From assembly GCA_963709295.1 (NCBI GenBank), contig CAVPVW010000003.1, forward strand, positions 403,283-467,282: a DNA stretch of 64,000 nucleotides. The letters run 5' to 3'. Under the pieces are notes generated by a model that made no database searches, was not told where the DNA came from, and saw only the letters and a list, made by a program, of their open reading frames with translations. The stretch's first letter is position 1; every line of letters starts with the position of its first letter. A program made the position numbers and the translations under genes. Shown one piece after another: positions 8,578 to 54,249 of the stretch. The DNA comes from an uncultured Chloroflexia bacterium (GTDB taxonomy: Bacteria > Chloroflexota > Anaerolineae > Anaerolineales > Villigracilaceae).

Positions 8578-9180
8578 GTGGACGCCCAACTCTTTCTTCG
8601 ATCACGGCGAAGCGTTAGAAGGTTCAGTGAACAGCCTGTAGACACCAACCTGCTCAAACGCATCATTGAAACGTCAACGTATGCCCCTTCGGCGCACAAC
8701 CGCCAACCCTGGCGATATGCTGTCATTGCCTCCCAGCGCATGAAAAAAGCATTGGCGGATGGCATGGCAGCAGAATTTGAACGCGACCTGTCAAAGGATG
8801 GTCTTGCGGAAGTTGAAATCCATCGCAGATTGGAGCGGTCCCGGAATCGAATCGAGCAGGCGCCGGTCGTGATCATTCTCTGCCTTGACGAATCAAATCT
8901 CGACCAATACAGTGACGACCGAAGGCAAGGCGCGGAAACGATCATGGGCATCCAGTCCATATCGATGGCAGGGCTTCAACTCCTGTTGGCAGCGACCGCC
9001 GAAGGGCTGGGGGGAGTCTGGACATGCGGTCCCCTCTTTGCGCAAGATTACGTCCGATCGGTTCTTCAACTTCCCGGGCCATGGAAACCGCAAGGCATGA
9101 TCCTTTTGGGTTATCCAGGCGAAACTCCTCAAGGCAAAGACATCAAATCCATCGAAGAAGTCGTGAAATTCATCGATTAA
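8578..9180 (+). CDS. Nitroreductase-family protein; stand-alone homolog of the FbiB C-terminal (dehydro-F420-0 reductase) domain
   Basis: RRSVRRF...PSAHNRQPWRY nitroreductase N-terminal signature. Sits between cofE and cofD. Confidence 0.5.
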   Translation: MDAQLFLRSRRSVRRFSEQPVDTNLLKRIIETSTYAPSAHNRQPWRYAVIASQRMKKALADGMAAEFERDLSKDGLAEVEIHRRLERSRNRIEQAPVVIILCLDESNLDQYSDDRRQGAETIMGIQSISMAGLQLLLAATAEGLGGVWTCGPLFAQDYVRSVLQLPGPWKPQGMILLGYPGETPQGKDIKSIEEVVKFID

Positions 9181-9200
9181 TTTCAAAAAACGGAGAGGCG

Positions 9201-10136
9201 ATGAAGATCGTTGCCCTGGCAGGTGGCGTGGGTGGAGCAAAGCTGGTGGATGGATTGGCGCAGATCCTGCCGGCTGAAGATTTAACCGTGGTGGTCAATA
9301 CAGGAGATGATTTTCACCACTGGGGATTGAAAATTTGCCCGGATTTGGATACCGTTTGTTACACCGTCGCCGGACTGGCTAACCCCGAAACAGGTTGGGG
9401 GCGCAATAATGAAACCTGGAATGTGATTTCCGAGATCTCCCGGTTGAACGGGGTTGACTGGTTCAGAATCGGGGACCGCGATCTCGCCACCCACATAGAA
9501 AGGACAGAACGGCTCGCATCCGGCCAGAGACTCTCTGAGATTGTTCACGACTTCTGCCAATCCTGGGGGATCGAAATCACGATTTTACCCATGTCCGACG
9601 ACCCCGTCGAGACCATTGTCATTACTGCCGAACATGGCGAATTGGCATTCCAGGAATATTTTGTTCACCAACATTGTGATCCAAAAGTCAAAGGTTTTAA
9701 GTTTGCCGGAGTTGAGTTCTCGAGACCGGCCATCGGAGTATTGGAATCAATTGCAGGTGCGGATGCCGTTATCTTATGCCCGTCCAACCCCTGGGTAAGT
9801 TTGGATCCAATTCTGTCCGTACCCGGCATCCTCCCGGCGATTAAATCCAGAAAAATTGTTGCAGGGGTCTCGTCCATCGTAGGTGGAGCCGCCATCAAAG
9901 GACCAGCTGCAAAAATGTTCTCGGAGTTGAACATCGAACCCTCTGCATTCGCGGTTGCTCAACAATACAAAGGGATGATTTCGCATTTCGTCATTGATTT
10001 AATCGACCACGATCTTGAGCGAAATATTTCCAGCCTGGGGATGAAAACGACTGCCGTCAACACGGTGATGAAAACCCGGGATGACCGACGCCAGCTTGCC
10101 TCAGATGTGCTAAACTTTGTGCAGAGAGCGGCATGA
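9201..10136 (+). CDS. cofD: 2-phospho-L-lactate transferase CofD (LPPG:FO transferase)
   Basis: MKIVALAGGVGGAKLVDGL...VVNTGDDFHHWGL..PDLDTVCYTVAG is the CofD family signature. GGAGAGG RBS. Stop overlaps the cofC start (ATGA). Confidence 0.75.
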   Translation: MKIVALAGGVGGAKLVDGLAQILPAEDLTVVVNTGDDFHHWGLKICPDLDTVCYTVAGLANPETGWGRNNETWNVISEISRLNGVDWFRIGDRDLATHIERTERLASGQRLSEIVHDFCQSWGIEITILPMSDDPVETIVITAEHGELAFQEYFVHQHCDPKVKGFKFAGVEFSRPAIGVLESIAGADAVILCPSNPWVSLDPILSVPGILPAIKSRKIVAGVSSIVGGAAIKGPAAKMFSELNIEPSAFAVAQQYKGMISHFVIDLIDHDLERNISSLGMKTTAVNTVMKTRDDRRQLASDVLNFVQRAA

Positions 10137-10756
10137 CCATTTGGGCAATCGTACCCGTTAAGCCATTGTTAGTTGGAAAATCCCGACTGGGCAGCGTCCT
10201 CTCCGGCGAGGAACGCGCCAGGCTGAGCCGGATGCTGCTCGAAAGAACGCTTGGAGTTTTGAAGGATACGCCCAGCATCGATGGTTCATTGGTCGTGAGC
10301 AGGGATCCCGAGGCACTGGCGATTGCACGCCAGTTTGGTTGCAGAACGGTGTTGGAACATGGACAAACTCAAACCGATCTAAACCTGGCTCTTTTACGGG
10401 CGACGACCGTCGCAAAGGCGTTCGAAATCAATGGGATACTGGTGCTTCCGGCCGATCTTCCGCTGATTTCCCCGGAGGATATCCAAGCCCTGGTGGATCA
10501 AACCGTAAAATCTCCGGTGGTCATCATCGCCCCGGACCGTCATAACGATGGGACGAATGCCATGCTCATGAGTCCGCCGGGATTGATTAAATTTGATTAC
10601 GGTCCGAATTCCTTCAATCGCCATTGCATGCACGCACTGGAGGCTGGCGCCAAGTTGGAGATCGTAAGGCGGGTGAATCTGGGTCTTGACCTGGATTTCC
10701 CGGATGACCTGGATTATTTCGAACAAATCCAAACTACAAGACAGGAGACGAAATGA
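10133..10756 (+). CDS. cofC: 2-phospho-L-lactate (or PEP) guanylyltransferase CofC/FbiD
   Basis: [19 protein letters not shown] is the classic CofC N-terminus. ~207 aa. Translationally coupled on both sides (ATGA overlaps). Confidence 0.65.
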
Positions 10757-11754
10757 CCAAGAGAGCAGCACTTTACTTGCAGGATTCGCACGACCTTCGA
10801 GACGGGCTCGACTACGTGAAATACGCCGAAGAGAAAGGTTTTGAGGCAGTCTGGCAGGCGGAATCGCGCCTGGTACGCGATGCCATCGTCCCCATGGCAG
10901 CGTACGCAGCCGTCACAAATCGGATCAAAGTCGGCTCAGGTGTCATCAACAACTGGACGCGAAACATCGGCCTGCTGGCCGCCACCTACCTGACGCTGGA
11001 TGACCTGGCTCCGAACCGAATTATCTGCGGAATTGGCGCCTGGTGGGATCCGCTTGCGAAAAATGTCGGCATTGACCGCCGCAAACCACTCACCGCGATG
11101 AAAGAAACCGTGTTGATCATGCGGCAGCTGCTCAAACTCGAGCGGGTCACCTTCCATGGTGAATTCATCCACGTGGACGGAATTGAATTGGACGTCGTTC
11201 ACGGCCGCAGGGAGCCTCGAAACGTGCCGCTCATGATCGGAGCGACAGGCGACCAGATGATGGAACTCACAGGTGAAATTGCCGACGGCGCGGTGCTCAA
11301 TTATTGCGTCCCACCCGACTACAACCACAAAGCTCTTGAGCTGCTCGAAAAAGGGGCTAAAAAAGCCGGACGCAGCCTGAACGACCTGGACCGGCCGCAA
11401 CTTATCGTCTGCTCGGTTGACCAGGATCACGACCGGGCCATCGAGACGTCCAAAATGCTGCTCTGCCAATATCTCGCGCAGCAGCCTCACATCGCCAAGG
11501 CCAGCGGAGTCGCCCAAGACGTTGTGACTGAAATCCAGTCGATCCTTGGGTGGCCAGCCACCAAGGAACAGATCAACAAGGCGAAATATCTCGTCCCTGA
11601 TGACCTGGTATTACGCATCACAGCTTCGGGTACGCCCGAAGAAGCCAAGCAGAAAGTTAAGGAATACGAAAACAATGGGTGCACTTGCCCGATCCTTTAC
11701 CCGGTCGGCGGAAATGTGAGACTCCTTATCGATACGTTTGGCACACCCGCGTAA
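10753..11754 (+). CDS. LLM-class (luciferase-like) flavin/F420-dependent oxidoreductase
   Basis: TIM-barrel LLM motifs ([44 protein letters not shown]). Position directly after cofC. Confidence 0.6.
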
Positions 11755-24065: not shown

Positions 24066-24086
24066 AGACTACATTTCGAGGACATT

Positions 24087-27066
24087 ATGAATATTACTTT
24101 GCACATTAATGGGAAAGACCATACCCTGGACATCCCCCCCGAGATGACATTGCTAAAAACACTCCGTCAATTGGGCTTTCACGGAGTCAAATTCGGGGAT
24201 GAACAAGGGATCAGTGGCGCAGATACCGTTCTCCTCGATGGCCGGCCAGTCAATGCCGGGCTGATGTTCGCTGCTCAAGCCGAAGGCCGCAAAATCGCCA
24301 CGATCGAAGCCCTTGGCGAACATCCGGACCAGGGCTGGCAAAAAACCGGCGGGTTGCATCCCATCCAGAAAGCATTCATAGAAAACGGGGCAATCCAATG
24401 TGGTTATTGCACCCCAGCCCAGGTGCTGGCTGCCAAGGCGCTACTGGACACAAATCCGAATCCTTCCGAAATCGAAGTGCGGGAAGCGCTGTCGGGAGTG
24501 CTTTGTCGCTGTACAGGTTACGCCAAGCCGGTACAGGCTGTCCTTAAAGCGGCTGCCGTGATGCGGGGGGAAGATCAATTCGATGGCAAGGAATACCTTA
24601 TTCCGGATGACAATCCTCCTTCTCCCTTACCCTCCAATGACGATTTGCCCGGAACAAACGGAGTGCAACTCAGCGTGATGCCCAAAGTCATCTTTGCGCC
24701 AAAGACATCGATTTACCAAACCGTGGGTAAGCCGGAAATTAAAGTGGATGCCATCAAGCTCGTGCAAGGGAAACCTGCCTTTGCTGCGGATATGGATCCC
24801 CGAGGGCTGCTGCATGCGAAGGTGCTCAGGTCACCGCATGCCCATGCCCGAATTAAAAGCATCGACACAACCAAAGCCAAGGCACTTCAGGGAGTCGCTG
24901 CAATCCTGACATGGAAAGACATCCCCCGGGTGGTGTACTCAACTGCCGGGCAGTCTGATCCAATCCCTGGCCCACTGGACACATTCTCTCTTGATAGCAA
25001 GGTCCGGTTTGTCGGTGATCGCGTGGCTTTTGTCGCGGCTGAATCGCCTGAAATCGCAGAGAAAGCCTGCAGGTTGATCGACGTCGAATACGAAGTGCTT
25101 GAACCGATTCTGGAATCGTCAAAAGCGCTGAACAATCAAGATAATCGCATCCATGATGAGTCTGAGTATGTCAATTTTGCGGGGTCGGATGCCGCCAGGA
25201 ACCTGGCCGCGGAAATCCGTATCGATATCGGTGACGTGGAAAAAGGATTCAGCGAGGCCGATGAGGTTTTTGAAGGCGTTTACGATGTGCCGAAGGTCCA
25301 GCAGGCGCATATCGAACCGCATGTCTGCATCACCTACTGGGACGAAGATGACCGCTTGGTCATACGTACATCGACGCAAGTCCCCTTCCACGTGCGGAGA
25401 ATGCTTGCTCCGGTTTTAGGCTTGCCGGTCAAGCGTATCCGCGTGATCAAGCCGCGAATAGGCGGCGGCTTCGGGGGAAAGCAGGAAGTCCTGATGGAAG
25501 ATGTGGCTGCGCACCTGACCATCGCCACAAAACGTCCGGTGCTTTACGAATATACCCGTGAAGAGGAGTTTATCGCAGCGCGCTCCCGTCATCCCATGAG
25601 GATTTGGATGAAAACCGGCGTAAAGCGCGATGGGACCTTGACGGCCAACGAGATGAAAGTACTCTCGGACACAGGCGCTTATGGCTGCCACGCTCTCACG
25701 GTGACCGGCAACACCGGGCACAAATCCATGGCGCTTTATGTTGGCGATGGCGCGTATCGCAAAGCGCCCAACATTCGTTTTTACGCGGACATCGTCTACA
25801 CCAACACTCCCCCGGCTGGAGCGTACCGAGGCTATGGCGTCCCTCAAGGATATTGGCCGGTCGAACGCCACATGGAAAAGATCGCCCGGGCGATGGGGTT
25901 AGATCCGCTCGAATTCAGGCTGAAAAATGCCATCCGTCCGGGCGAATACCATCCCTTCAGCACCGCCTGGAACGAAGGCCGGAAACCTCGTCCTGAGATC
26001 ATCCACACGGTCGGGTTGGAGCAATGCGTCCAGCAGGGAAAAGCAGCCATCGGTTGGGACGACAAAATTGACAATGCCGAATGGCACGACAACAAAACAT
26101 CAGGTAAGAGTTACTCTAAAAAAGGCATTGGTGTCGCGATGGTCATGCAAGGGACAGCCATCCCTTATCTGGACATGGGAGGCGCCTCCATCAAGATGAA
26201 CGACGACGGTTCCTTCAATCTCCTGGTCGGCGCAACCGACTTGGGGACCGGGTCAGATACCGTTCTTGCACAAATGGCGGCAGAAGTTTTGGGTGTGCCG
26301 TTGGATGACATCCTCACCTATTCGTCGGACACGGATTTCACCCCCTTCGACAAGGGGGCGTATGCATCCTCCACCACGTATATCTCCGGGACGGCCGTAG
26401 TGAAGGCGGCAGAAATCGCCGCGGATAAAATCAAGCAAAGGGCTGCCTTACTCCTTGATCTTGAAAGAGCATACCACTATCATCCTTAAAGATAAAAAAG
26501 CCAATGCTCCGGATGGGCGAAGCGTGACGCTTTCCGAAATCGCGCTCGATTCTCTTCACCGCCAGAAACAGGAACAAATCATGGGCGTGGCTTCGTACGT
26601 TTCACCTTCCTCGCCTCCTCCTTTTGCGGCCCAATTCGCAGAGGTTACTGTCGATCAGGAAACGGGCCAGGTCACTGTTGATAAACTCGTCATGGCCGTG
26701 GATTCCGGCATCATCGTCAATCCACTCACGGCTTCCGGACAAATTGAGGGCGGCATGATCCAGGCGCTTGGCTATGCGGTGTGTGAAGAGATGCGGTATG
26801 ATTCCCAAGGCAATGCCCGCGAGAAGGATTTCCTGGACTACCATATCTTCCGAGCCGACGAAGTTCCAGCCCTGGAGACGATCTTTGTGGAAACCTTCGA
26901 GCCCAGCCACCCCTTTGGGGTCAAAGCCGTGGCGGAAATCCCAATGGACGGAGTCGCTCCGGCAGTGGGGAATGCCATTTTGGATGCCGTGGGCGTAAAT
27001 ATCGATGAGAATCCAACCACGCCTGAGCGGGTGTGGAGAGCCTTGAAGAAATTAACACCGGCATAG
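24087..27066 (+). CDS. Molybdenum hydroxylase with fused [2Fe-2S] and molybdopterin-binding domains (XdhD-like xanthine dehydrogenase family), interrupted by an apparent frameshift at ~26465-26480
   Basis: N-terminus carries 2Fe-2S Cys clusters (IQCGYCTPAQV, LCRCTGY). It is followed by aldehyde oxidase/XDH a/b-hammerhead and MoCo domains. The ORF at 26455 in frame +1 continues the C-terminal MoCo dimerization domain (GVASYVSPSS...VNPLTASGQIEGG). Confidence 0.7.
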
Positions 27067-35256: not shown

Positions 35257-37095
35257 TTAGCTCCAGTCCTTCGTTTCTGTTTTATCCAATGCGCCCAGAG
35301 TCCATCCCAGCCCGAGAGATTCCAATTTTTCATCGGATGGGATTCCTGTCTCTGGATTCCAACATCTTGCAAAGTAATAAGCTTCCATCATTCCACTAAA
35401 ATCAGGGACAAACCCAGCGCTTCCACCATCCTGCAAGGGTTGCAGAAGGGGCTTTGGCAATCGATCATTTGCCCTGGTCAGACCCAATCTATGGTTGATC
35501 ATCCGTTTTAAATTCCAGCCTCGTTCACCAGTGGTTATCAATTCATCAAGGGAAAGATCCATATCACAGGCAAGGTTCACCAAGTTTACAACCGCGTCAG
35601 GGTCAATGTTTCCAAATAGGCACATGATCAGGGAATCGTAGACCGCTCTCCAATCCTGATGCCTCGCGATGCTGGCTGATTTTTCACCACCTGCATGCCG
35701 GTCATGAAGCGATAAGCCGATTTTTGTTTCTACCTGTCCAATTTCAGCCAGGAAATAATCCGATTGATTATGGCAGGCGCCGCGAGGCGATGTGGCATAC
35801 ACCACCGCCATTCCGGATGCGCCGCGTGGATCATGATAGGCAAGTTCCAATCCGTTTACCTGGATCGCTTCATCTTCCACACCAAAATGCTTTGCAAGAG
35901 ACCGAGTCCCGTTGGAAAGGAGTGCGCCAATACCTTCTCTCCTGGCTATCAGGTGGATTAATTGACTGGCAGCCGCAACATTCCCCCACATCAACTCGAG
36001 GCCTTGAGTATGTTCGCTGGTGAGTATTCCCATTTCAAAAAGACGGAAGGCCAGACCAATAACTCCACTGGTGGAAATCGAATCCAAGCCGTATTGGTCG
36101 CATAATTCGCCCATCCGGGTAATTGCGTGAGTGTCGGTAATGCCCAGATTGGTCCCGAACCCGACCAGCGTTTCATATTCCGGGCCTTTTCTCTTGTTTC
36201 CGTCATCGAGCGTGACGACGCGCCCGCACGCCACCACGCAGGCATGACATGCACTCTTCCCGGTCAAAATGGTTTCAGCGATGCTAGAGCCGGTAATGGC
36301 ATTAGAATTTTCCAGGGTCCCAGCCGAGAAATATTTTTTGGGCATCATACCGAGGTAATCAAAATAATCCGCAGCACTGGCCGTACCCAGGTCAGTCAGC
36401 GCATTGGTTAGCGAATCTTTTTTTAGAGCCCGGTTGGATTCTCCACGCAGTTTTGCAAAATGATCAAGGTTTTTGACGGGTATCTTATTTGACCCCCGCA
36501 CAGCAATGGCCTTGAGGTTCTTGGACCCCATGACGGCGCCCATGCCAGTACGGCCGGCAACTCGACCATGGTCACACAACATCAGTGAAAAAGGAATCAA
36601 GGATTCGCCCGCTGGGCCTATTGCCAATACGCGCGTACCAGGATCTTGCACTTCCTCTTTGATCAATTCTTGAATTTTATAAGTATCCTGACCCCAGAGG
36701 TGAGAGGCTGGCCTGATTTCGACCTGGTCATTGGAAATGTGAATAATCACCGGTTGCGGAGCACGTCCTGTAATATAAACCCCATCCCAGCCAGCCATGC
36801 GGAGCTCAGGCCCCCAGAAACCGCCTATGTGGGCCTCTCCCCACAACCCTGTTGCGGGGGACTTGGCACAAACCACAAATCGTCCTGCAGTGGGAGCTGC
36901 GGTCCCAGTCAACGGACCTGTCATGCAAAGAAGAGGCGCCGAAGGAGACAATGGGTCCAAGTCAGCAGTCAGCGAATCAAACAAAATTCGAGCCGCCAAC
37001 GACGCTCCTCCGATAAAATCGAATTCCCAGCTCGAAGGAACGCTGAAGGAATCGATTAGATTATTGGATAGATCAATCCTCAATATGGGTTGCAT
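35257..37095 (-). CDS. Aldehyde:ferredoxin oxidoreductase family protein (tungsten/molybdopterin AOR)
   Basis: AOR N-terminal domain (ILRIDLSN...) and characteristic internal motifs (CHACVVACGR, GLELAYHDPRG). 612 aa. Stop 2 nt after the nnr start. Confidence 0.75.
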   Translation of the reverse strand: MQPILRIDLSNNLIDSFSVPSSWEFDFIGGASLAARILFDSLTADLDPLSPSAPLLCMTGPLTGTAAPTAGRFVVCAKSPATGLWGEAHIGGFWGPELRMAGWDGVYITGRAPQPVIIHISNDQVEIRPASHLWGQDTYKIQELIKEEVQDPGTRVLAIGPAGESLIPFSLMLCDHGRVAGRTGMGAVMGSKNLKAIAVRGSNKIPVKNLDHFAKLRGESNRALKKDSLTNALTDLGTASAADYFDYLGMMPKKYFSAGTLENSNAITGSSIAETILTGKSACHACVVACGRVVTLDDGNKRKGPEYETLVGFGTNLGITDTHAITRMGELCDQYGLDSISTSGVIGLAFRLFEMGILTSEHTQGLELMWGNVAAASQLIHLIARREGIGALLSNGTRSLAKHFGVEDEAIQVNGLELAYHDPRGASGMAVVYATSPRGACHNQSDYFLAEIGQVETKIGLSLHDRHAGGEKSASIARHQDWRAVYDSLIMCLFGNIDPDAVVNLVNLACDMDLSLDELITTGERGWNLKRMINHRLGLTRANDRLPKPLLQPLQDGGSAGFVPDFSGMMEAYYFARCWNPETGIPSDEKLESLGLGWTLGALDKTETKDWS

Positions 37096-37098
37096 TGC

Positions 37099-42005: not shown

Positions 42006-42728
42006 ATGAAAGTCATCACGAACGAGAAGCTGATTAAAAAATACAGCAACCTGGGGAAATATCTCAACATCGGCGCGATCGCGATTCTATTCGGCGGCAT
42101 GGCAATTTCATGGCTGCGAATTGACTTGTTTTACCTTGCGATGATCGCGCTCCTGGCTGGTTTTATCCTTTCACAGGTCAGTATATTTTTCATCAATCGT
42201 TGGGGTCGCCGACCGCGTCCGGATGAACGAATTACCAGCCAGCCTCAAAGGGCTGACAAACGATTACACGTTATATCACTACAACACACCTGTTTCACAT
42301 CTCCTGGTTGGACCAGCCGGTGTTTGGACAATTCTGCCTTACTTCCAGCGAGGGACGATCACGTACGAAAAAATCGATGGAAACAAAGAGGAGGCGGTCT
42401 CGGGCTGGCATATCTCAAGGTGTTTGCCCAGGAGGGACTTGGCCGACCTGATCTCAACTCAAAATCCGATGTTGACAAGTTGACCGAATTCTTCACCCAA
42501 GCCTTGGGAGCGGAAATTCCTGAAGTCAAATCTGTCCTGGTATTTACTGACAATCGTGCTGATCTGAAGGTGGAAGGGGCACCCATCCCCACCATGGCCG
42601 CAGAAGACTTAAAGGAATTTATCCGAAAACAGGCGAAGGAAAATTCCATGCCTGGAAGTTTACTCAGCTCGTTAAAATCCAATCTCCCGAAAGAAGAAAA
42701 ACCTGTCAAATCAGATAATGGAAAGTGA
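42006..42728 (+). CDS. Membrane-anchored NERD (nuclease-related domain) protein; the coding sense appears to leave and re-enter frame (two compensating 1-nt indels at ~42230 and ~42395)
   Basis: Two N-terminal TM helices in frame 0. The NERD-like core LKGLTNDYTLYHYNTPVSHLLVGPAGVWTILPYF is readable only in frame +1 (42223-42400). The C-terminal part (EIPEVKSVLVFTDN...) is again in frame 0. Confidence 0.45.
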   Translation: MKVITNEKLIKKYSNLGKYLNIGAIAILFGGMAISWLRIDLFYLAMIALLAGFILSQVSIFFINRWGRRPRPDERITSQPQRADKRLHVISLQHTCFTSPGWTSRCLDNSALLPARDDHVRKNRWKQRGGGLGLAYLKVFAQEGLGRPDLNSKSDVDKLTEFFTQALGAEIPEVKSVLVFTDNRADLKVEGAPIPTMAAEDLKEFIRKQAKENSMPGSLLSSLKSNLPKEEKPVKSDNGK

Positions 42729-42805
42729 TCGACGGGATTTCCACAATACTTGAAAGTCATTAAAATCTTCCCACTTAATTAAAAGCATCCAGGTATATAT
42801 TCGTC

Positions 42806-45602
42806 ATGGCTTCCATTGTATCGATCGATATCGAAACCACCGGGCTCGATTCCAATAAAGATGTCATTATTGAGATCGGAGCGGTGAAATTTAAAGATCA
42901 TCGCATTGAAGATGAGTTCTCGACCCTGATTAACCCGGGAAGACATATCCCTGAATTCATCACTCAGCTGACTGGGATATCGGATGAAATGGTCCGCCAG
43001 GCACCGCGTATTCAGGAGGTCATAGACGAACTTGAGGCATTTGTCGGCGATTCAATTATCCTGGGTCACAATGTACGTTTCGATCTGGGTTTTCTCCAAA
43101 AGCACAAGATATTGCAATTCAATGAGGTCATTGATACTTACGAACTGGCCTCTGTCTTGCTGCCGACAGCCAGCAGATACAACCTCGGTGCCTTAGGGCA
43201 GCTGCTTGCGATTCCGCTTCCCGCAACGCATCGCGCACTGGATGACGCGCGTGTGACCCATCGCGCCTACGTATGCCTACACGAATACGGAAGGGAGCTC
43301 CCGCTCGATGTGCTTGCTGAAATCACTCGACTTGGCGAGCCGCTCGACTGGGATGCAAATCCCTTTTTTCAACAACTGATGAGGCTCCGCGCCAAGGAAG
43401 GCATCGCCAAGAAATCCGTCAGGCGCAGTACGCAAGAAAAACTGTTGGCGAATCTGGATTACGTCCGCCAGGAAGTGCTGAAGCCGGTTGATGAACCAAT
43501 TCCCCTCGACCCTGACGAGACTGCATCAATTCTCGAATACGGCGGTCCATTCTCAAAACATTTCGAAGCATTCGAACAACGGCCCGAACAGATCGAGATG
43601 CTGCGCGCCGTAACCGCCGCCCTTTCGCAAGGCCAATCATCTGATGGTTGAAGCCGGCACAGGCGTTGGAAAATCGTTTGCGTACCTTGTCCCGGCTGCC
43701 CTGTTCGCAACGCAGAACAACACGCGCGTGATCGTGTCTACCAACACCATCAACCTGCAGGATCAACTCATTCAGAAGGATATCCCCGCTTTGCGGGAAG
43801 CGCTGCAACTGGATCTGCGCGCAGCGGTACTCAAAGGACGCTCAAATTACCTGTGTCCGCGCCGCTTGGAGATTCTTCGCCACAATGGACCGCGGGATTC
43901 AGAAGAGATGCGTGTGCTTGCGAAGGTCCTGGTCTGGCTGGACGGAGGCGCCAGCGGTGACCGGAATGATATCAATCTCACCCGGCCTGCGGAGAAAGAT
44001 GTCTGGACCAAGATCTCGGCGGAGGACGATGCCTGCACCACCGAAACCTGCCTCGGACGCGAAGGCGGCGCCTGCCCTTTCTACCGGGCAAAACAAGCCG
44101 CTCTCACCTCGCATATCCTTGTTGTGAACCATGCCCTTCTCCTGGCGGACGTCGCTACGGGGAGCAAGGTGCTGCCCGAATACAACTATCTCATCGTTGA
44201 CGAAGCGCACCACCTCGAAGCGGCGACAACAGGTGCCTTGAGCTTCAAACTCACCCAGAATGACCTGGAGCGGATGCTCCGCGAAGTCGGCAGCCATCAG
44301 TCCGGGGTCCTTGGCTTTCTGCTGACTACGATCAAGGACACCATGCGCCCTTCTGATTTTGCGCATTTGAGCCAGGCCGTGCATCGGGCGGGAGAAATGG
44401 CTTTTCGTCTTGAGAATCAGGCCAGGGATTTTTTCTCCACGCTGCAGTATTTCATCAGCCAGCAAAGGGAGGGGAAACCGCAGAGTCAGTATGCCTATCA
44501 GGAACGGATCCTTCCTTCATCGCGAACACTTCCCGGTTGGGACGAAGTGGAAATTGCCTGGAGCGGCTCCGGTGAAACGCTTCGGTTGTTGTTGAATTTG
44601 ATGGCGGAAATTTATAAAACAGCCAGTGATCTTTACGCTGAAGGGCACGACGAACTCGAGGATGTTAATGGAAGTATCAGTTCCATTTTTCGCCGGTTGT
44701 CCGAAGCGGAAAACAACATCAGCGGGATGATCCACGAGCCTTCGCCGGAGATGATCTATTGGATCGAGATCCAGCCGAACGGTAATCGCTTGTCCCTGCA
44801 AGCTGCCCCGTTAAGAGTAGGGCCTCTCATTGAAAAATATCTATGGCACGAGAAGAACAGTGTCATCCTCGCTTCCGCCACACTGACGGCCGGCGGGGAT
44901 TTCAACTACATCCGCAACACGCTCAATGCCGATGAGGCCGACGAGCTATTCCTTGGTTCACCGTTTGACTACGAAAACTCGACACTCTTATACCTTGCCA
45001 AGGACGTGCCCGAACCCAATGCGCACGGATATCAACAGGCAGTGGACAGGACCCTACTTCATCTTTGTAAAGCCACAGGCGGGCGGACGTTGGTGTTGTT
45101 TACATCGTACGCGCAGTTGAAGCGGACATCCCAGAACATCACCGGTCCTCTCGCAGACGATGGCATTCTTGTTTACGAACAAGGCGAAGGCGCTTCACCC
45201 AACACGCTCCTCGATGCTTTCAAGACCACCGACCGCGCCGTGCTGCTGGGCACCCGCTCCTTCTGGGAAGGCGTGGATATTCCCGGAGAGCAGCTCTCCG
45301 TCGTGGTATTGGTCAAGCTGCCCTTTGATGTCCCTTCAGACCCTCTAATTGCTGCCAGATCCGAGACTTTCGAGGACCCGTTCAACGAATACCAACTCCC
45401 TGAGGCAATTCTCAAATTTAGACAGGGATTCGGGCGCCTGATCCGAACGGCATCCGACCGAGGGGTTGTGGTTGTCCTCGACCGCCGGCTGCTCACCAAG
45501 CCCTACGGGCGATCATTTATCGAATCATTGCCGCAATGCACATTACGGCAGGGGTCGCTTTCAGACTTGCCAAAACAAGCTGCCAAGTGGCTAAATCTCT
45601 GA
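42806..45602 (+). CDS. dinG: DinG-family ATP-dependent helicase with N-terminal DnaQ-like 3'-5' exonuclease domain (Gram-positive-type DinG); apparent 1-nt frameshift at ~43637-43641
   Basis: Exonuclease motifs (VSIDIETTGLD, HNVRFDLGFL, HRALDDAR) in frame 2. The helicase starts MVEAGTGVGKS (Walker A) in frame 0 immediately after the stop. Includes the DEAH-like box (LIVDEAHHLE), the Fe-S cysteine region (CPRR...C...C..C) and the C-terminal helicase domain. Confidence 0.75.
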
Positions 45603-46975: not shown

Positions 46976-47584
46976 TCAATCGGTCTCTTTCCAATGTTTC
47001 CCCAGCGCCTTACTGCTTTCTGCATGATCGGAGATGATGATCAATGCCGTAGTGACATTCCCTCCAGAACTTCTCCAACTATGCTTTAACTGTGCAGCAA
47101 ATAACAAGCTGTCTCCCGATTCCAAGATATAGTTTTGTTTTTCGACACGATATTCCAGCTTGCCCCGCAAACAAAACACAAACTCGTGCCCGGTGTGAGA
47201 CATCGGAACCAGTCCGCTGCTGGCGCCATTCTCCAGGTTCACCAGGAAGGGCGATACCTTTCCAACAAACTGCTCCCCGCCCAATCCTTCCATGTTGCCG
47301 CGATTAAACGCAATGTGAGTTCGTTCATTCGACTTGAGAAAAACCACTTCCTGCTTCTCAAGCTGATGACTGAAAAACTCCGTGATTGGCACACCCAATG
47401 CATCCGACAACTTATACAACGTGCTCACTGAAGGAGATGTCTTTCCGCGCTCGATCATGCTGAGCGCATTCGCGGATAATCCGCTCTTGACGGCCAACCC
47501 GCGCATGGAGATATTTTGTTCTTCGCGCAGCTGCTTCAGCCGCTGGCCAACATCCACCGACAAAGCTTCTTTTTCGTAGACCAT
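46976..47584 (-). CDS. XRE-family HTH transcriptional regulator with C-terminal cupin domain
   Basis: N-terminal HTH_3 (LKQLREEQNISMRGLAVKSGLSANALSMIERGKTSPSVSTL). C-terminal cupin beta-barrel (GHEFVFCLRGKLEY...GDSLLF). GGGAGG RBS. Confidence 0.65.
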   Translation of the reverse strand: MVYEKEALSVDVGQRLKQLREEQNISMRGLAVKSGLSANALSMIERGKTSPSVSTLYKLSDALGVPITEFFSHQLEKQEVVFLKSNERTHIAFNRGNMEGLGGEQFVGKVSPFLVNLENGASSGLVPMSHTGHEFVFCLRGKLEYRVEKQNYILESGDSLLFAAQLKHSWRSSGGNVTTALIIISDHAESSKALGKHWKETD

Positions 47585-47749: not shown

Positions 47750-48085
47750 ATGATTACACCTACTCTCGCTCAAGAAGTCTCCCGTTTGGAAGCAGATCTT
47801 TGCTTTGCACTATCGGACCCTACCCGGATTCTGATTCTCTATGCTTTGGATGAAAGGCCTCAAAACGTAAACGAGATCACTGCGGCACTCGCCATTTCAC
47901 AGCCCACCACCTCCAGGCATTTAAAAATCCTGCGCGATAGAGGTCTCGTTACAACGAACAGATTGGGTACGACCATCACCTACCATCTGGTCGACCGTCG
48001 CCTGATCCAGGCATTGGACCTGCTCCGAAGCGTTTTAAGGGACAGTCTTGTTCGCCGCGCCAGCCTGGTTGAAGAACTCGAATAA
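47750..48085 (+). CDS. ArsR/SmtB-family metalloregulator-type HTH repressor
   Basis: LSDPTRILILYALDERPQNVNEITAALAISQPTTSRHLKILRDRGLV is the canonical ArsR winged-helix signature. The start at 47750 was chosen over the upstream AT-rich extension. Confidence 0.65.
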   Translation: MITPTLAQEVSRLEADLCFALSDPTRILILYALDERPQNVNEITAALAISQPTTSRHLKILRDRGLVTTNRLGTTITYHLVDRRLIQALDLLRSVLRDSLVRRASLVEELE

Positions 48086-48114: not shown

Positions 48115-49554
48115 ATGAAGAATAATAGACCCTATTGGATACTGGGAGCCATCGCCATCTTTATCATCATCATCCTCCCGGTGTTTTATTTCTTGCCCAA
48201 GGACGCACAAGCCAAAGATGACCCCTGGGCACATATGCCTGTCAAGGCTGTGCATGTCGATCACAAGGACATCGTCCAGGGACCATTCGAAACCTCGCAA
48301 GAAGTCACTTTGCGCTGCCTGGAGTGCCACCCGGAAGCCGCAGAACAGGTCATGGCAACCTCGCACTGGACCTGGGAAAGTGAACCCTTCGACGTACCCT
48401 GGCGCGATGAACCCGTCACGATTGGCAAGATCAACCAACTTAACAACTTTTGCATCAGCGCACAAGGTAACCAAAAGAAATGCATGTCCTGCCATATCGG
48501 AGTTGGCTGGCAGGAAGGCGAGCAGCCTTTCGATTTCACAAAAACCGAAAACATTGACTGCCTGGCCTGTCATGCAGACAAGTCAACTTACGCAAAAGGC
48601 GAATATGGCAATCCGGCCGAGGGCATCGACCTCCTGGCTGCTGCACAAAGCGTGAAGGCACCCGACCGGACCAACTGCGGCTCCTGCCACTTCAACGGCG
48701 GCGGCGGCAACAACGTCAAGCACGGAGACCTTGATGAAAGTCTTTACAACCCGACCGAGACCACCGACGTTCATATGGGCCGCTATGATTTTCTATGCAC
48801 TGATTGCCACCAGACCAACGATCATGCCGTCAAAGGAAAACTCGTAGCGGACAATTACGAAGTGGATCCTTCCGAACAGGTCGCTTGCACAGATTGCCAC
48901 AACCAGGAACCACACGGCGATGAGCGCTTGAATGGACATACTGCGTCCGTGGCATGCCAAACCTGTCACATTCCATCGATGGCAGTAAAGAATCCAACAA
49001 AACTGAACTGGGACTGGTCCACTTCCGGGCAGGACAAGCCGGAGGATCATTATACTTATCTCAAGATCAAAGGCGATTTTGTATACGACGAAGATGTCCC
49101 GCCGGTTTACAGGTGGTCAAACGGAAACCTCACCTATAGATACCTTTTGGGCGACAAGATCGATCCTTCAGTGCCTACGGTCATCGACCAACCTGCAGGT
49201 GACATAGACGACTCCCAGGCGAAGATCATGCCCTTCAAACTTCACGTCGCCAGTCAACCGTATGACACGGGGTTCAACTATTTACTCGCGCCTATCACTG
49301 CCGGTCCGGATGGTTATTGGACTAACTTTGATTGGGATAATGCCTTTGAGCTGGCAGAACCCATAACCGGCCTCGAGTATAGTGGAGACTTCAGTTTCGC
49401 CGAGACCTGGATGTACTGGCCGACCACTCACATGGTCCAGCCGAAGGAAAACGCCCTGCAGTGCGACGAATGCCACAGCGAAAGCGGCCGTCTCGACTGG
49501 GAAAGCCTGGGATACCCCGGCGACCCGATCGAATGGGGCGGGCGCTCAGAGTAG
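48115..49554 (+). CDS. Octaheme c-type cytochrome, Otr (octaheme tetrathionate reductase) family-like, N-terminally membrane-anchored
   Basis: N-terminal TM/signal anchor. Eight CxxCH motifs (CLECH, CMSCH, CLACH, CGSCH, CTDCH, CTDCH, CQTCH, CDECH). SHWTW after heme 1, as recalled for the Otr family. GGAGA RBS. Confidence 0.65.
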   Translation: MKNNRPYWILGAIAIFIIIILPVFYFLPKDAQAKDDPWAHMPVKAVHVDHKDIVQGPFETSQEVTLRCLECHPEAAEQVMATSHWTWESEPFDVPWRDEPVTIGKINQLNNFCISAQGNQKKCMSCHIGVGWQEGEQPFDFTKTENIDCLACHADKSTYAKGEYGNPAEGIDLLAAAQSVKAPDRTNCGSCHFNGGGGNNVKHGDLDESLYNPTETTDVHMGRYDFLCTDCHQTNDHAVKGKLVADNYEVDPSEQVACTDCHNQEPHGDERLNGHTASVACQTCHIPSMAVKNPTKLNWDWSTSGQDKPEDHYTYLKIKGDFVYDEDVPPVYRWSNGNLTYRYLLGDKIDPSVPTVIDQPAGDIDDSQAKIMPFKLHVASQPYDTGFNYLLAPITAGPDGYWTNFDWDNAFELAEPITGLEYSGDFSFAETWMYWPTTHMVQPKENALQCDECHSESGRLDWESLGYPGDPIEWGGRSE

Positions 49555-49611: not shown

Positions 49612-52418
49612 ATGACCCATTGGAAAAAAATATCAACTGCGAGAAGGTTAGTTATTACAGGGGTTGCAATTCTGGCAGCGGCCAGCTTGGCGCTATTTGT
49701 CCAGAATGTTTTCGCACAAGTTGGCGCAACCAAGGACGAACAACCCTCCCCTCTCCATCCCACATTTGCGATGCTGGATGAAAACGGGGTCAGTGTCATC
49801 GAGAGCGGCGAGGCTGTATCCACCTTGAAGACCTGCGGACAATGCCATGACACAGAATTCATCACAAGTCACAGCTACCATTCAGATGCAGGGCTTGGAA
49901 GCATGGGAATGCCCGGGCAGGAAACAGACGGAATGCCTTGGGACTCAAGCGATGGGCTGTTTGGGAAGTGGGATCCATTGCTCTATCGTTACCTGACTGT
50001 CACAGGGTGACCAGAACCTTGACCTGAGTACAGCCGAATGGATAAAAACCTACGGCTTGCGGCACGCGGGCAGCGGTCCCGCGGAAATGAGCAGGGATGG
50101 TCAACCACTCGAATCACTTGATCCTTCCATTCAGGACCCCGAAGCGAGTATCTTGAATGAAAACTCCGGGAAAGCGCAACGCTGGAACTGGGACGAATCC
50201 GGTACCATCGAGATGAATTGTTTCCTCTGCCATTTCACATCGCCGAATAACGATGCGCGTATCGCGGCGATTTCGGATGGAGAGTTTGCCTGGGCCAACA
50301 CCGCCACGCTGATCGGAACCGGCCTGGTTGAAAAGGTCGCTGGCGGATACGAATGGAATATCGGGGCATTTGAGCAGGATGGCAAGCTCAAGACAAGACT
50401 TTGTACTGGTGCAGGACCCAAAAAACGAGAATTGTGCCCAGTGCCACGGATTGGTCCAAGCCGACCCTGCCACACCAGTGGTACTTTCCGGCTGTGAACT
50501 CGAATACCCCGAATCGGCCACAACCGGGCAGATCATCTCTTCGCAGCAAATATCTGAATCGGGCATGAATATTCAGGACAAAGCCAGCCTGACCCGCTCC
50601 TGGGATATTCACGCTGAACGAGCTTTATCCTGCACGGATTGCCACTACTCAATTAACAACCCCGTTTATGCCTTGCCGGATGAACAAGCGCCGGAACATC
50701 TCCTCTTCGATCCCAGAACACTGGATCTCGGTGCTTACTTAAAACAGCCCGATCATAATTTTGCCCGAGGGCAAAGTGATTCGAACGAAATCAGCGCTGC
50801 ACCCGAAATGCGCCGGTGCGATTCCTGCCACGATTCACAATCAAGTCACGAAGACTGGCTTCCTTACGTCCAGCGGCATATGGAAACCGTTGCCTGCGAA
50901 ACCTGTCACATCCCCGAAATGTATGCGCCCGCCATCCAAAGCTACGATTGGACGGTCATTCATCAGGATGGCACACCGGTCGCTACCTGCCGAGGTGTTG
51001 AAGGCGACACGGGGACCATCAACGACCTCGTGACGGGATATCAACCGGTCATTCTTCAGCGCACAGAAGCTGACGGCGGTAAATTTCTCGCTCCGTACAA
51101 CCTGATCACCTCCTTCTTCTGGGTTTATACGGATGACAACGGAAACGAACGCCCCGTCCGTTCGTTCGACCTCGAAGAAGCCTACCTGGAGGATGGCAAC
51201 TATTCACAAGGCGTTATCGCTGCATTCGACGCTAACGGAAACCAGCAACTCGAGAAGTCAGAATTGCTGATCGACAACGATGTAAAGCAATCTTTGATTG
51301 CATCCAAGCTTTTGGAACAGGGCATCCACGAGCCCCGCATCCAGGGATATGTTCAAGCTTATGGGGCAAGCCACGGCGTCACATCGAGTGAGTACGCTAT
51401 CAATGATTGCGCTGTCTGCCATAACCGGGACTCTCGGATAGCGTCGTCCATTTTACTTGCGGACCATACGCCGGGTAATGAAATTCCATCGCTCGAATCG
51501 GACAATGCAGTTACCGCCAGCGGAGAAATCGCCCTCAACGAGAACGGCTCTGTCAGCTTCACCCCTCAGCCGGAGAATGAGCAGGTTTACATTCTTGGTT
51601 ACAGCTATGTCTACTGGGTGGATGCATTTGGAGCCATCATGTTCGTGGGTGTGCTGCTGGCCATCCTGGCACACGCGACAATACGCATTATTTCTAACCT
51701 TCGTCACAAGCCTGCCAAAACCGATGTTCACAAAGTCTACATGTACGACTCTTATGAACGGTTATGGCACTGGTTGCAGACCGCCGCCATCGTCATTCTC
51801 CTGTTCACCGGCCTGGTCATCCATCGTCCGGACCTGTTTGGAGCCTTCTCATTCCGAAATATGGTGTATGTCCATAATATCATCTGGATGCTGCTAGCGA
51901 TTAACGCAGCTTTATCGCTCTTTTACCACCTCGCCAGTGGAAGAATCAAGCAATTTATCCCGCGGCCGTATGGATTTTTTGATGAGGCGATTATCCAGGC
52001 GAAATATTACATCAAGGGAATTTTTAAACACGAGTCTCACCCGTTTGAGAAGAACCCTGATAAGAAAATGAACCCGCTTCAGCAGGTTACTTACTTCGGG
52101 ATCCTTAATATCCTGCTGCCTCTGCAAGGATTGACCGGGATTGCCATGTGGGGCCTGCAGAGATGGCCGGATATTTCAACTGCGCTTGGCGGGTTGGTCT
52201 GGCTTGCTCCCTTCCACACCCTCATCGCCTGGACGTTTGCCACCTTTATCCTGGGGCATGTGTATCTCACGACCACCGGCTCAAAACCTCTTGACGGGAT
52301 CAAGGGGATGGTGACGGGCTGGGAGGACGTTGAGGTTCATCACGAACAACCCAACCCTGAGGATGTATCTCAGGATCAAACAACCAATAACGATCAAGCT
52401 CCCACTAAGGAGGATTAA
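49612..52418 (+). CDS. CbcL-like fusion: periplasmic heptaheme c-type cytochrome domain + C-terminal diheme cytochrome b (HydC/FdnI-type) membrane domain; two apparent 1-nt frameshifts (~49995 and ~50390)
   Basis: Signal peptide. Seven CxxCH motifs spread over three frames (CGQCH; CFLCH; CAQCH, CTDCH, CDSCH, CETCH, CAVCH). C-terminal 4-TM cytochrome b domain with conserved His (WHWLQTAAIVILLFTGLVIH, HNIIWML, FHTLIAWTFATFILGHVYL). The reading sense is continuous across the frame switches. Confidence 0.6.
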
Positions 52419-52421
52419 TCC

Positions 52422-52995
52422 ATGACTACTGCAGATATGCCTGCGCAAAAACCTTCAAAATTCAAACAATTTCTGTTTGGTCGCCCGGTAAAGCCCTACG
52501 TACACCCCTACCTGGGCGGCACACTCCTGGGAATTGTGTTATTCCTGGCGTTTTTCCTAACCGGCAACGGCCTCGGCGCATCCGGTGGCATGAACAGGAT
52601 CGTAGTCTTCTTTGAAGATCTCATCGCTCCTGCTCACATCGACCAGGTAGCTTACTTGCTCAAGATGGCGGGCGGGGTCGAAGAATCCGCTGGACGATTG
52701 GATCATTCCTGTTGTCATTGGCGCCCTGCTTGGGGGCTTTGTGTCCGGGTGGTTTAACGGACGCTTAAAAGTGGAAACCAATAAGGGTCCGCAAATCACA
52801 GTAAAAACCCGCTGGATGATGGCTTTCATCGGCGGGACGATCATGGGGTATGGCGCCCGATTCGCTCGCGGCTGCACATCCGGACAGGCACTCTCAGGAG
52901 GCGCCACGCTTGCCGCCGGGTCATGGGTATTGATGTTCTGCATTTTCGGCAGTGGGTATGCACTCGCATATTTTGTGCGCAGGCTTTGGTTGTAA
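52422..52995 (+). CDS. YeeE/YedE-family sulfur-compound transporter, first half-unit (TsuA-like); apparent 1-nt frameshift at ~52685
   Basis: AAGGAGG RBS. N-terminal TM pair in frame 0. Continues in frame +1 as LDDWIIPVVIGALLGGFVSGW...FARGCTSGQALSGG (the conserved GCTSG Cys motif of the family). Confidence 0.55.
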
Positions 52996-53007: not shown

Positions 53008-54249
53008 ATGAATTTTCCCCTTGCAGCTTTTACTAATGTGTCCGCTCTCAACCCCTGGACCTATTTGGTCTTTGGATTGATCGGCTTTGGGTTTGGGTTC
53101 GTACTCGAAATTTCCGGATTTGGTAATTCAAAGAAACTTGCCGCCCAGTTTTATTTTACAGAGATGACGGTTCTCAAGGTCATGTTCACGGCAATTGTCG
53201 TCGCGATGGTATTGCTTGCCATCGCCACAGGCTTGGGAATTCTGGACATCAACCAGGTATGGATTAATCCAACTTACCTTTGGCCTGGAATAGTCGGTGG
53301 ACTCATCATGGGAGTTGGGTTCATTATCGGCGGCTTCTGCCCCGGGACGTCCCTGGTTTCCATGGCGACATTCAGGGTGGATGGTCTTTTCTTTGTTCTC
53401 GGGAGTCTTTTTGGGATCTTCCTTTTCGGAGAGACCGTCCAGTATTTTGAGGGGTTCTGGGAAAGCAGTAATTACGGCCGATTGACGCTTATGGATTGGC
53501 TGGGATTAACCACCGGACAGGTGGTGCTCATCATCGTTCTGATGGCATTGTTGATGTTTGCATTTGCCGAACTGATGGAATCGTTTATTGGAAAAAGGGA
53601 CTTAAAAGCAGAGCCTAAGCTTCGAATAGCCGGCGCAGCACTGTTGATAGCGGGAGCTGTGGCAGTATTGATCATCGGCCAGCCCACTCTTTCAGAGAAA
53701 TGGGCAAAGATATCATCCGTAAAAGAAGCCTCGTTGGCAGCCAGGGAAGTTCAAATTTCACCCGCTGAATTGTTGTCCACGAAGGCGAATGACGGATTGC
53801 GATTGGTAATGCTCGATATTCGACCCGAATCCGAGTACAACCTCTTCCACATCGATGGAGCAGCAAATGTACAGCCGGAGGCACTTGAAAAGGTCGCCGC
53901 AGACATCATTTCCCAGTCTGCGCCGAACCTGGTCGTGGCGGTTATGAGCAACGACGAGGATGCTGCGACTGAAGCCTGGAAAGTTCTAACCGCGGCAAGT
54001 GTCGCGAATGTTTACATCCTCGAGGGTGGAATCAATAACTGGATATCCGCCTTTGGCAAGGAGGAATCGGAGATTACACCGATTGCCTCCGACCAAGTCG
54101 AAAATGACTCTCTGCGCTATCTTTTTGATTCGGCACTGGGCAACCGTTACGAATGTTCAGATCCCAATCCGCACGAATACGATCTCGAATTCGAACCAAA
54201 GATCAAGCTCGAGCTCAAACGCGATAAAAGTGGTGGTGGCTGCGGCTAA
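53008..54249 (+). CDS. YeeE/YedE-family transporter, second half-unit, fused to a C-terminal rhodanese domain
   Basis: GGFCPGTSLV Cys motif in the TM domain. C-terminal LRLVMLDIRPESEYNLFHIDGAANV rhodanese fold. AAAGGAGG RBS. Confidence 0.6.
   Translation: MNFPLAAFTNVSALNPWTYLVFGLIGFGFGFVLEISGFGNSKKLAAQFYFTEMTVLKVMFTAIVVAMVLLAIATGLGILDINQVWINPTYLWPGIVGGLIMGVGFIIGGFCPGTSLVSMATFRVDGLFFVLGSLFGIFLFGETVQYFEGFWESSNYGRLTLMDWLGLTTGQVVLIIVLMALLMFAFAELMESFIGKRDLKAEPKLRIAGAALLIAGAVAVLIIGQPTLSEKWAKISSVKEASLAAREVQISPAELLSTKANDGLRLVMLDIRPESEYNLFHIDGAANVQPEALEKVAADIISQSAPNLVVAVMSNDEDAATEAWKVLTAASVANVYILEGGINNWISAFGKEESEITPIASDQVENDSLRYLFDSALGNRYECSDPNPHEYDLEFEPKIKLELKRDKSGGGCG

Follow-up and report, generated by a model that had tools for sequence, protein, structure and literature searches.

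Proteins in which a multihaem cytochrome c and a membrane-bound cytochrome b are joined in one polypeptide are represented by CbcL of Geobacter sulfurreducens (GSU0274), where a nine-haem c domain is joined to a dihaem b domain and six transmembrane helices are present (PMC6295460; bioRxiv 10.1101/2022.08.31.506072). Such fusions, the CbcL/MtrH/MtoC group, have already been found in 15 phyla, with 3-23 haems and lengths of 416-1034 amino acids, and the same survey, from 2018, counted zero CbcL homologues from Chloroflexi (PMC6295460). We have analysed a stretch of 64,000 nucleotides (the window) from contig CAVPVW010000003.1 of an uncultured Chloroflexia bacterium belonging to the Anaerolineales, and describe a gene of this general type at positions 49612..52418 of the + strand. 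It is one gene for a multihaem c/dihaem b protein of 934 amino acids after removal of two extra bases, which are very probably errors of the assembly. Judged by its sequence, the protein is best called an Otr-like seven-haem/PhsC-like cytochrome b fusion typical of Chloroflexota, and a search of the literature on CbcL in Chloroflexota yielded no paper on this family.

Comparison with described cytochromes

The likeness to CbcL lies in the order of the domains, an N-terminal multihaem cytochrome c and a C-terminal cytochrome b of the HydC/FdnI kind on a single chain. With the CbcL/MtrH/MtoC group the protein also shares the absence of iron-sulfur, molybdenum or nickel-iron subunits, and its 934 amino acids and seven haems are within the published range. 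When the protein was held against the published description, by which CbcL was known to us, the domain order was found but neither nine CX2CH motifs nor six C-terminal transmembrane helices; there are instead seven CxxCH motifs over about 620 residues and five C-terminal helices. The c domain is Otr-like, and the gene has its place beside Otr and sulfur genes and not in an extracellular electron-transfer system. The original prediction for this DNA, made from the letters alone, had matched the protein to CbcL, and of that match the domain order stands whereas the haem number, the number of transmembrane helices and the type of c domain do not.

Three other described proteins resemble it in part. 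From the octahaem cytochrome Otr of Shewanella oneidensis (PDB 1sp3; model TIGR04315) it differs by its seven haems, by extra inserted beta-rich regions and by the fusion to a cytochrome b, and with 27 bits against a cut-off of 375, and seven motifs instead of eight, the c domain falls outside the Otr family as modelled. Methanosarcina MmcA (TIGR04314) has seven CxxCH motifs as well, and there is a weak but significant local match over about 190 residues (45.8 bits, expect value (E) of 3.7e-12), far below the membership cut-off of 250 bits; MmcA comes from archaea and lacks a fused cytochrome b. The b domain comes closest to PhsC and FdnI. The model of PhsC, the cytochrome b of the Salmonella thiosulfate reductase (NF011582), matches residues 671-903 with 132.6 bits, which is below its cut-off of 204, and the window protein differs from PhsC by being without PhsA/PhsB-type partner genes, by its fused c haem domain and by three extra invariant histidines, His687, His737 and His772.

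Architecture of the protein

The polypeptide consists of an N-terminal signal or anchor helix, an extracytoplasmic domain with seven haems, a linking transmembrane helix and a four-helix dihaem cytochrome b. The haem-binding motifs, all on the + strand, are CGQCH at 49834..49848 (residue 75), CFLCH at 50219..50233 (residue 203), CAQCH at 50433..50447 (residue 274), CTDCH at 50631..50645 (residue 340), CDSCH at 50817..50831 (residue 402), CETCH within VACETCHIP at 50895..50909 (residue 428) and CAVCH at 51408..51422 (residue 599). Invariance was scored over 125 full-length homologue sequences, in which each of the seven motifs was found without exception (125/125), and a count of exactly seven CxxCH was obtained for 123 of 124 full-length homologues; a rough composition-based estimate of the chance expectation for seven CxxCH is about 0.01 per protein. 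Outside the motifs, the c domain has seven invariant histidines (49, 87, 90, 333, 381, 412 and 587) and one, His422, that is present in 99% of the sequences, and these eight are enough for bis-histidine ligation of all seven c haems.

For the structure we used the AlphaFold2 model of P0001, the best database match, which is 934 amino acids long and 92% identical to the window protein (predicted local distance difference test 77.5, predicted template modelling score 0.73). It has an N-terminal helix at residues 9-35 and an extracytoplasmic domain of mixed alpha/beta structure, and structural superposition recovers the Otr octahaem fold over 306 of the approximately 620 residues of the c domain. 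Motifs 5 and 6 align with the Otr paralogue encoded next to the gene (hhalign probability 96%), and a phmmer comparison of the protein with PDB sequences gave a weak Otr match (E=0.002) and left the b domain undetected by sequence.

The b domain is found by the Pfam model Ni_hydr_CYTB (PF01292) at 51744..52319 (+), with E=2.4e-21, 76.7 bits against a cut-off of 30.1, and coverage of model positions 2-179 of 179, and its four-helix fold superposes on a solved member of the family. Four histidines, His719 on helix 1, His754 on helix 2 and the pair His868 and His882 on helix 4, are invariant in the 125 sequences, and in a MAFFT alignment with FdnI and HyaC they fall on FdnI His18, His57, His155 and His169, which we take from PDB 1KQF to be the haem ligands of that protein, and on HyaC His22, His63, His184 and His198. 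The spacing of 14 residues between His868 and His882 is the same as in the FdnI pair His155/His169. Two b haems would be bound through His719/His882 and His754/His868. An hhalign comparison of the family profile with Escherichia coli FdnI placed helices 1-2 on FdnI helices 3-4 with a probability of 50%, and was unusable for assigning ligands.

There are five long C-terminal helices in the model, at residues 667-697, 713-737, 747-775, 821-850 and 860-887. The first of these is the linking transmembrane helix (51612..51704, +), which is supported by the model, by the coverage of the PhsC profile and by its invariant His687. Together with His687 (window position ~51670), His737 (~51820) and His772 (~51925) are invariant in the 125 homologues, and the latter two are found where helices 1 and 2 end, at a distance from His719 and His754. 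The three may make up a site for a third haem or for quinol.

Most of what had been read from the letters about the architecture is confirmed by these comparisons. Seven CxxCH motifs do precede a cytochrome b domain, the merged protein does match Ni_hydr_CYTB above the gathering cut-off, as had been proposed for a check, and the four haem-ligating histidines do line up with those of the HydC/FdnI type. The b domain had been described as having four transmembrane helices, which is right for the FdnI-like part but leaves out the linking helix, with which five are predicted, as in PhsC.

The two frame breaks

The + strand between 49561 and 52418 is open in three successive frames, namely frame 1 up to a TGA at 50008, frame 2 at 49997..50495 and frame 0 at 50313..52416, and the limits of the overlapping frames confine the first shift to the 11 bases 49997-50007. 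The candidate start is the ATG at 49612, with GGTGGA just before it. Each frame change amounts to one extra base, at about 50004 and about 50396. At the first site (50002..50008, +) the base lies within GTCACAGGGTGA and is either the A at 50004 or one G of the GGG run, and the corrected reading is GTC ACx GGT GAC, which gives V T G D. At the second site (50393..50397, +) the window has an A too many (GACAAGAC, compared with GACAGAC), which the alignment with relatives puts at 50395/50396, and the corrected reading is AAG ACA GAC TTT, or K T D F. Deleting one base per site gives the junctions YRYLTVTGDQNLDLS and GKLKTDFVLVQDPK, which are gapless against intact homologues of 934 amino acids. With both bases gone, the gene is free of in-frame stops, of deletions and of any other lesion. 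P0001 aligns without gaps across both junctions, where it reads YRYLSATGDQILDLS and GKLKTDYVLV, so that LTVTGDQ and GKLKTDFVLV of the corrected window have LSATGDQ and the latter string as their counterparts. The 90% cluster of P0001 holds more intact members, of 934-938 amino acids and with 92-95% amino acid identity to the window protein. The frame changes had first been put at ~49995 and ~50390, with a protein continuous across them, and both the positions and the continuity agree with our result; the residues then written at the junctions, T/SQG and KT/RQDF, were off by one or two.

Related loci were compared in DNA in six independent assemblies. These were L001, a Microflora Danica metagenome-assembled genome (MAG) with 90% nucleotide identity, the Logan assemblies L003 (91.5%) and L014 (93.7%), L015 from the Joint Genome Institute (93.9%), and the more distant L004 and L005 (~75%). 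The cytochrome gene is intact in all six. L001, L003, L014 and L015 have one base fewer at the first site, and over the whole cytochrome gene the sole indels between the window and these four close assemblies are one base absent from them at each of the two sites. Over the 6 kilobases (kb) that span the Otr and rhodanese genes, exactly three indels separate the window from L003, and each is a base that the window has in excess (50004, 50396 and 52679); the same three extra bases are seen against L001, L014 and L015.

The last of these lies in the next gene, and similar breaks are found in genes that have nothing to do with the cytochrome. Over the 23 kb that the window has in common with its relatives, one-base frameshifts present only in the window break three more genes, YeeE-type at 52679, DinG-like at 43636 and ComEA-like at 56542, the latter two found by tblastn with the open reading frames (ORFs) of the relatives against the window. 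In the gene for the YeeE/YedE-type half-protein (52422..52995, +), a single extra base at 52679/52680 leaves the ORFs 52422..52757 and 52741..52995. The DinG-like gene for an RNase T exonuclease-helicase fusion (42797-45599, +) is split by one extra A at 43636 and is a single gene for 931-934 amino acids in L001, L002 and L004, and the ComEA-like gene with SLBB and HHH_3 domains (56455-56995, -) is truncated by an extra A in the A-run 56539-56542 in comparison with L001 and L014. Pfam matches disclose two further cases. A xanthine-dehydrogenase/aldehyde-oxidase-type molybdopterin subunit (24066-27063, +) has MoCoBD_2 positions 5-143 and 149-283 in different frames and is split within 26404-26489 (~26.4 kb), probably by an extra A in GAAAGAG. 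The gene gatA for subunit A of the Glu-tRNA(Gln) amidotransferase (61898-63519, -), which normally is essential, has its Amidase match divided between frames (positions 9-140 and 144-444), with the break at ~62930-62945 inside the amidase signature GGSSGGSAAAVAA...LGTDT, where it resembles a GGGG run reduced to GGG. A break in a gene like gatA marks the contig as prone to errors. For the whole 64 kb we count at least seven frameshifts, spread over six genes. In the cytochrome gene, the substitutions on the branch of the window have a ratio of nonsynonymous to synonymous changes (N:S) of 32:122, and those on the branches of two close relatives of 17:33 and 16:34. The window branch is more constrained than theirs, its ratio indicates purifying selection, and the corrected gene is without an internal stop.

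A separate irregularity is found in the ORF 42006..42728 (+), where a +1 and a -1 indel in relation to L001 lie 135 nucleotides apart at 42237/42372. The ORF stays open, L004 matches the stretch 42237-42372 in another frame, and we believe that the two probably are a compensating pair that leaves about 45 codons out of frame. L001 has a frameshift of its own at window position 61301.

In a collection of 15 billion proteins, the fragments of the window protein occur only on one NCBI/ENA contig, of 1,021,900 bp, and the closest relatives in genome collections are Microflora Danica MAGs, from a project that reports Nanopore-only Flye assemblies with one Medaka polishing round (PMC12313526). Two Logan contigs from run ERR11561443, L007 (window 50652-52678) and L006 (52684-54812), are 99.6% identical to the window; they stop and restart exactly at the indel at 52679, and L007 has one-base deletions of its own at window 51751 and 52026, which break the cytochrome gene elsewhere. 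The sequencing platform of ERR11561443 we infer, as we do the project to which the window belongs. With the N-terminal 358 residues as query, the database gave no near-identical fragment, only numerous copies that are split or incomplete and lie on other contigs, of which some are long.

We are confident that both frame breaks in the cytochrome gene are single-base assembly errors, and neither the marks of a pseudogene nor of recoding, because the relatives lack the bases, unrelated genes in the window are broken in the same way, and the window branch is constrained. An intact gene with sequencing indels was also what the original prediction had supposed. Some points weigh on the other side. 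The indels were called from assembled sequences alone, exact-sequence look-ups of the window proteins found only L006 and L007, neither of which spans 50004 or 50396, and three frameshifts within 2.7 kb of one operon have a chance of about 1% under a uniform error rate, by a Poisson estimate. Because the three cluster in this way, some room is left for a recent decay of the operon, in which the frameshifts would be real mutations in a lineage that is losing its Otr/cytochrome/YeeE genes. That two adjacent genes of one operon are hit fits such a loss, yet gatA and the DinG-like, ComEA-like and xanthine-dehydrogenase-like genes elsewhere in the window have similar one-base breaks, the cytochrome gene has no other lesions when the bases are removed and shows purifying selection, the Otr and YeeE-rhodanese genes are intact in the window, and the cytochrome gene itself is whole in every related assembly, for which reasons we regard a genuine pseudogene as improbable. 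A programmed +1 ribosomal frameshift at both sites, by which the full protein would be made through recoding, was considered as well, since both shifts are +1 and the first site ends in GGG-UGA-C. That string is loosely like the +1 site of prfB, which is stimulated by a stop codon. The second site has neither a stop nor a rare-codon context, however, unrelated genes in the window carry similar extra bases, and all six related assemblies lack the shift sites and are read in a single frame, for which reason no conserved slippery or stimulatory element is possible; we rejected programmed frameshifting, the chance of which we hold to be negligible.

Gene cassette and distribution

The gene for the c-b fusion is the third in a cassette of five on the + strand, with gaps of 3-57 nucleotides, in the order ArsR regulator, Otr octahaem cytochrome, c-b fusion, YeeE half and YeeE-rhodanese. 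The ArsR-family helix-turn-helix (HTH) regulator is at 47750..48085 (Pfam HTH_5, 8.5e-18; its start was inferred from orthologues of 111 amino acids), and the Otr-family octahaem cytochrome c at 48115..49554 is intact, with 479 amino acids and 549 bits on TIGR04315 against the cut-off of 375. After the fusion gene comes the YeeE/YedE-type half-protein described above, which in relatives is a single gene for 185-212 amino acids (~190), and then an intact gene at 53008..54249 for 413 amino acids, a YeeE-type membrane domain with a rhodanese (Pfam Sulf_transp and Rhodanese), which is conserved in position. A divergent XRE-HTH/cupin regulator (46976..47584, -; Pfam HTH_3 and Cupin_2) is conserved beside the cassette. 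The same cassette was found in 8 of the 8 relative loci for which genes are listed. The closest of these has about 94% DNA identity and the most distant about 55% protein identity, and what flanks the cassette varies among them. PhsA/PhsB-type molybdoenzyme or iron-sulfur genes are absent from the cassette in the window and in the eight relative loci, and in the loci examined the cassette holds no outer-surface conduit and no further large multihaem cytochromes.

The window copy of the ArsR regulator has a single cysteine (in ADLCFALSDP); its persulfide-sensing relatives BigR and SqrR use a pair of cysteines. Elsewhere in the window, at 8916-11754 (+) and 35260-37098 (-), there are cofD and cofC for F420 biosynthesis, with a gene for a luciferase-like monooxygenase after them, and a gene for an aldehyde:ferredoxin oxidoreductase. 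Such genes are in keeping with a Chloroflexota bacterium that is anaerobic or facultative.

Searched against a protein database, the joined protein gave 1709 homologues, nearly all of the named ones from Anaerolineales, Caldilineaceae or other Chloroflexota, and a HMMER search over 1.84 billion cluster representatives gave 385 clusters (50% identity) at E<=1e-30. Among the best 146 of these 385 clusters, seven haems with a b domain were found in 60 and seven haems without it in 54, and in part these 54 may owe the lack of the domain to other breaks in assembly. In the same 146 clusters the constant unit of the wider family is the seven-haem module, and some of the fused forms are compact, of about 650-800 amino acids. 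The architecture had at first been thought rare outside metal reducers, a view that is refuted by the 15 phyla of the published survey (PMC6295460) and by 1709 matches, of which nearly all the named ones are from Chloroflexota.

Proposed function

We consider it rather probable that the window holds one intact gene, with two spurious insertions, for a menaquinol dehydrogenase that feeds an Otr-type reductase in the metabolism of sulfur oxyanions. The architecture, its conservation, the gene order and the artefactual character of the frame breaks are results of the comparisons above; which way the electrons flow, to which partner and onto which substrate is what we infer here, from context and homology. 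Menaquinol would be oxidised at the membrane domain, from which its electrons would cross by way of the two b haems to the outside of the cell and go along the chain of seven c haems. These haems, each presumably with two histidine ligands, would hand the electrons to the octahaem reductase of the Otr family that is predicted to be co-transcribed, and this enzyme would reduce a soluble oxyanion. If thiosulfate is the product, it could be imported by the YeeE pair and be processed by the fused rhodanese. By analogy with FdnI and PhsC, the quinol would be oxidised near the haem on the cytoplasmic side, and no proton-motive force would be added. The same argument on the proton-motive force has been made for CbcL (bioRxiv 10.1101/2022.08.31.506072).

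Tetrathionate is the prototype substrate of the Otr family. The potential of the tetrathionate/thiosulfate pair is about +0.2 V and that of menaquinone about -0.07 V, and because of these potentials we favour electron flow from quinol to acceptor.

Several points weigh against this reading or make it less specific. It is built on gene context and homology, and to our knowledge no member of the seven-haem c-b family, and no Otr from Chloroflexota, has been studied. Enzymes of the Otr family also reduce nitrite and hydroxylamine, either of which may be the substrate here, and His687, His737 and His772 have no aligned histidine in FdnI or HyaC.

Another possibility is that the protein is a true equivalent of CbcL, a quinol dehydrogenase for the reduction of extracellular metals or electrodes in Chloroflexota. 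The domain order is that of CbcL (PMC6295460) and the haem domain is outside the membrane, but with seven haems instead of nine, an Otr-like c domain, a reductase for soluble substrates and genes for sulfur transport and rhodanese as its invariant neighbours, and neither an outer-surface conduit nor large multihaem cytochromes in the cassette, we find this improbable. The role with low-potential extracellular acceptors, which the gene had initially been given, is accordingly not upheld, as the context of Otr, YeeE and rhodanese indicates sulfur-oxyanion metabolism. It is slightly easier to imagine, although still unlikely, that the Otr-like domain with its seven haems is itself a catalytic reductase or oxidase with its own quinol-oxidising subunit, and that the Otr paralogue has a separate role. 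The Otr fold, the haem-pair motif in common with the paralogue, and the occurrence of the module without a b domain in 54 of the 146 representative clusters would suit such an enzyme. On the other hand, the eight invariant or near-invariant histidines suit bis-histidine ligation of every haem, as in an electron wire, the score on the Otr model is far below the cut-off, and the protein is one haem short of the octahaem set. A dehydrogenase that passes electrons from menaquinol to the neighbouring Otr-type reductase is for us still the most rational explanation.

Conclusions

The frame breaks in the cytochrome gene tell nothing about its biology, and on a contig with about one indel per 9 kb it is unsafe to call any gene a pseudogene. 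The family to which the gene belongs is large, strictly conserved and unstudied in Chloroflexota, and since quinol dehydrogenases that are c-b fusions are already known, it is an extension of these and not a surprise.

It is possible, and we offer it only tentatively, that in Anaerolineae and other Chloroflexota the cassette forms a self-contained respiratory module not described before, where the c-b fusion replaces quinol dehydrogenases of the CymA/NrfH type for the reduction of tetrathionate or a related oxyanion, coupled to import of thiosulfate and its processing by rhodanese. If the proposed wiring is right, it would identify the quinol dehydrogenase, missing so far, that serves Otr-type reductases where an organism has no CymA, and would suggest a turnover of tetrathionate and thiosulfate by Anaerolineae, whose respiration is poorly known. 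Should the cassette indeed be such a module, the Chloroflexota that are abundant in soils and sediments would have an unrecognised role in the cycling of intermediate sulfur compounds.

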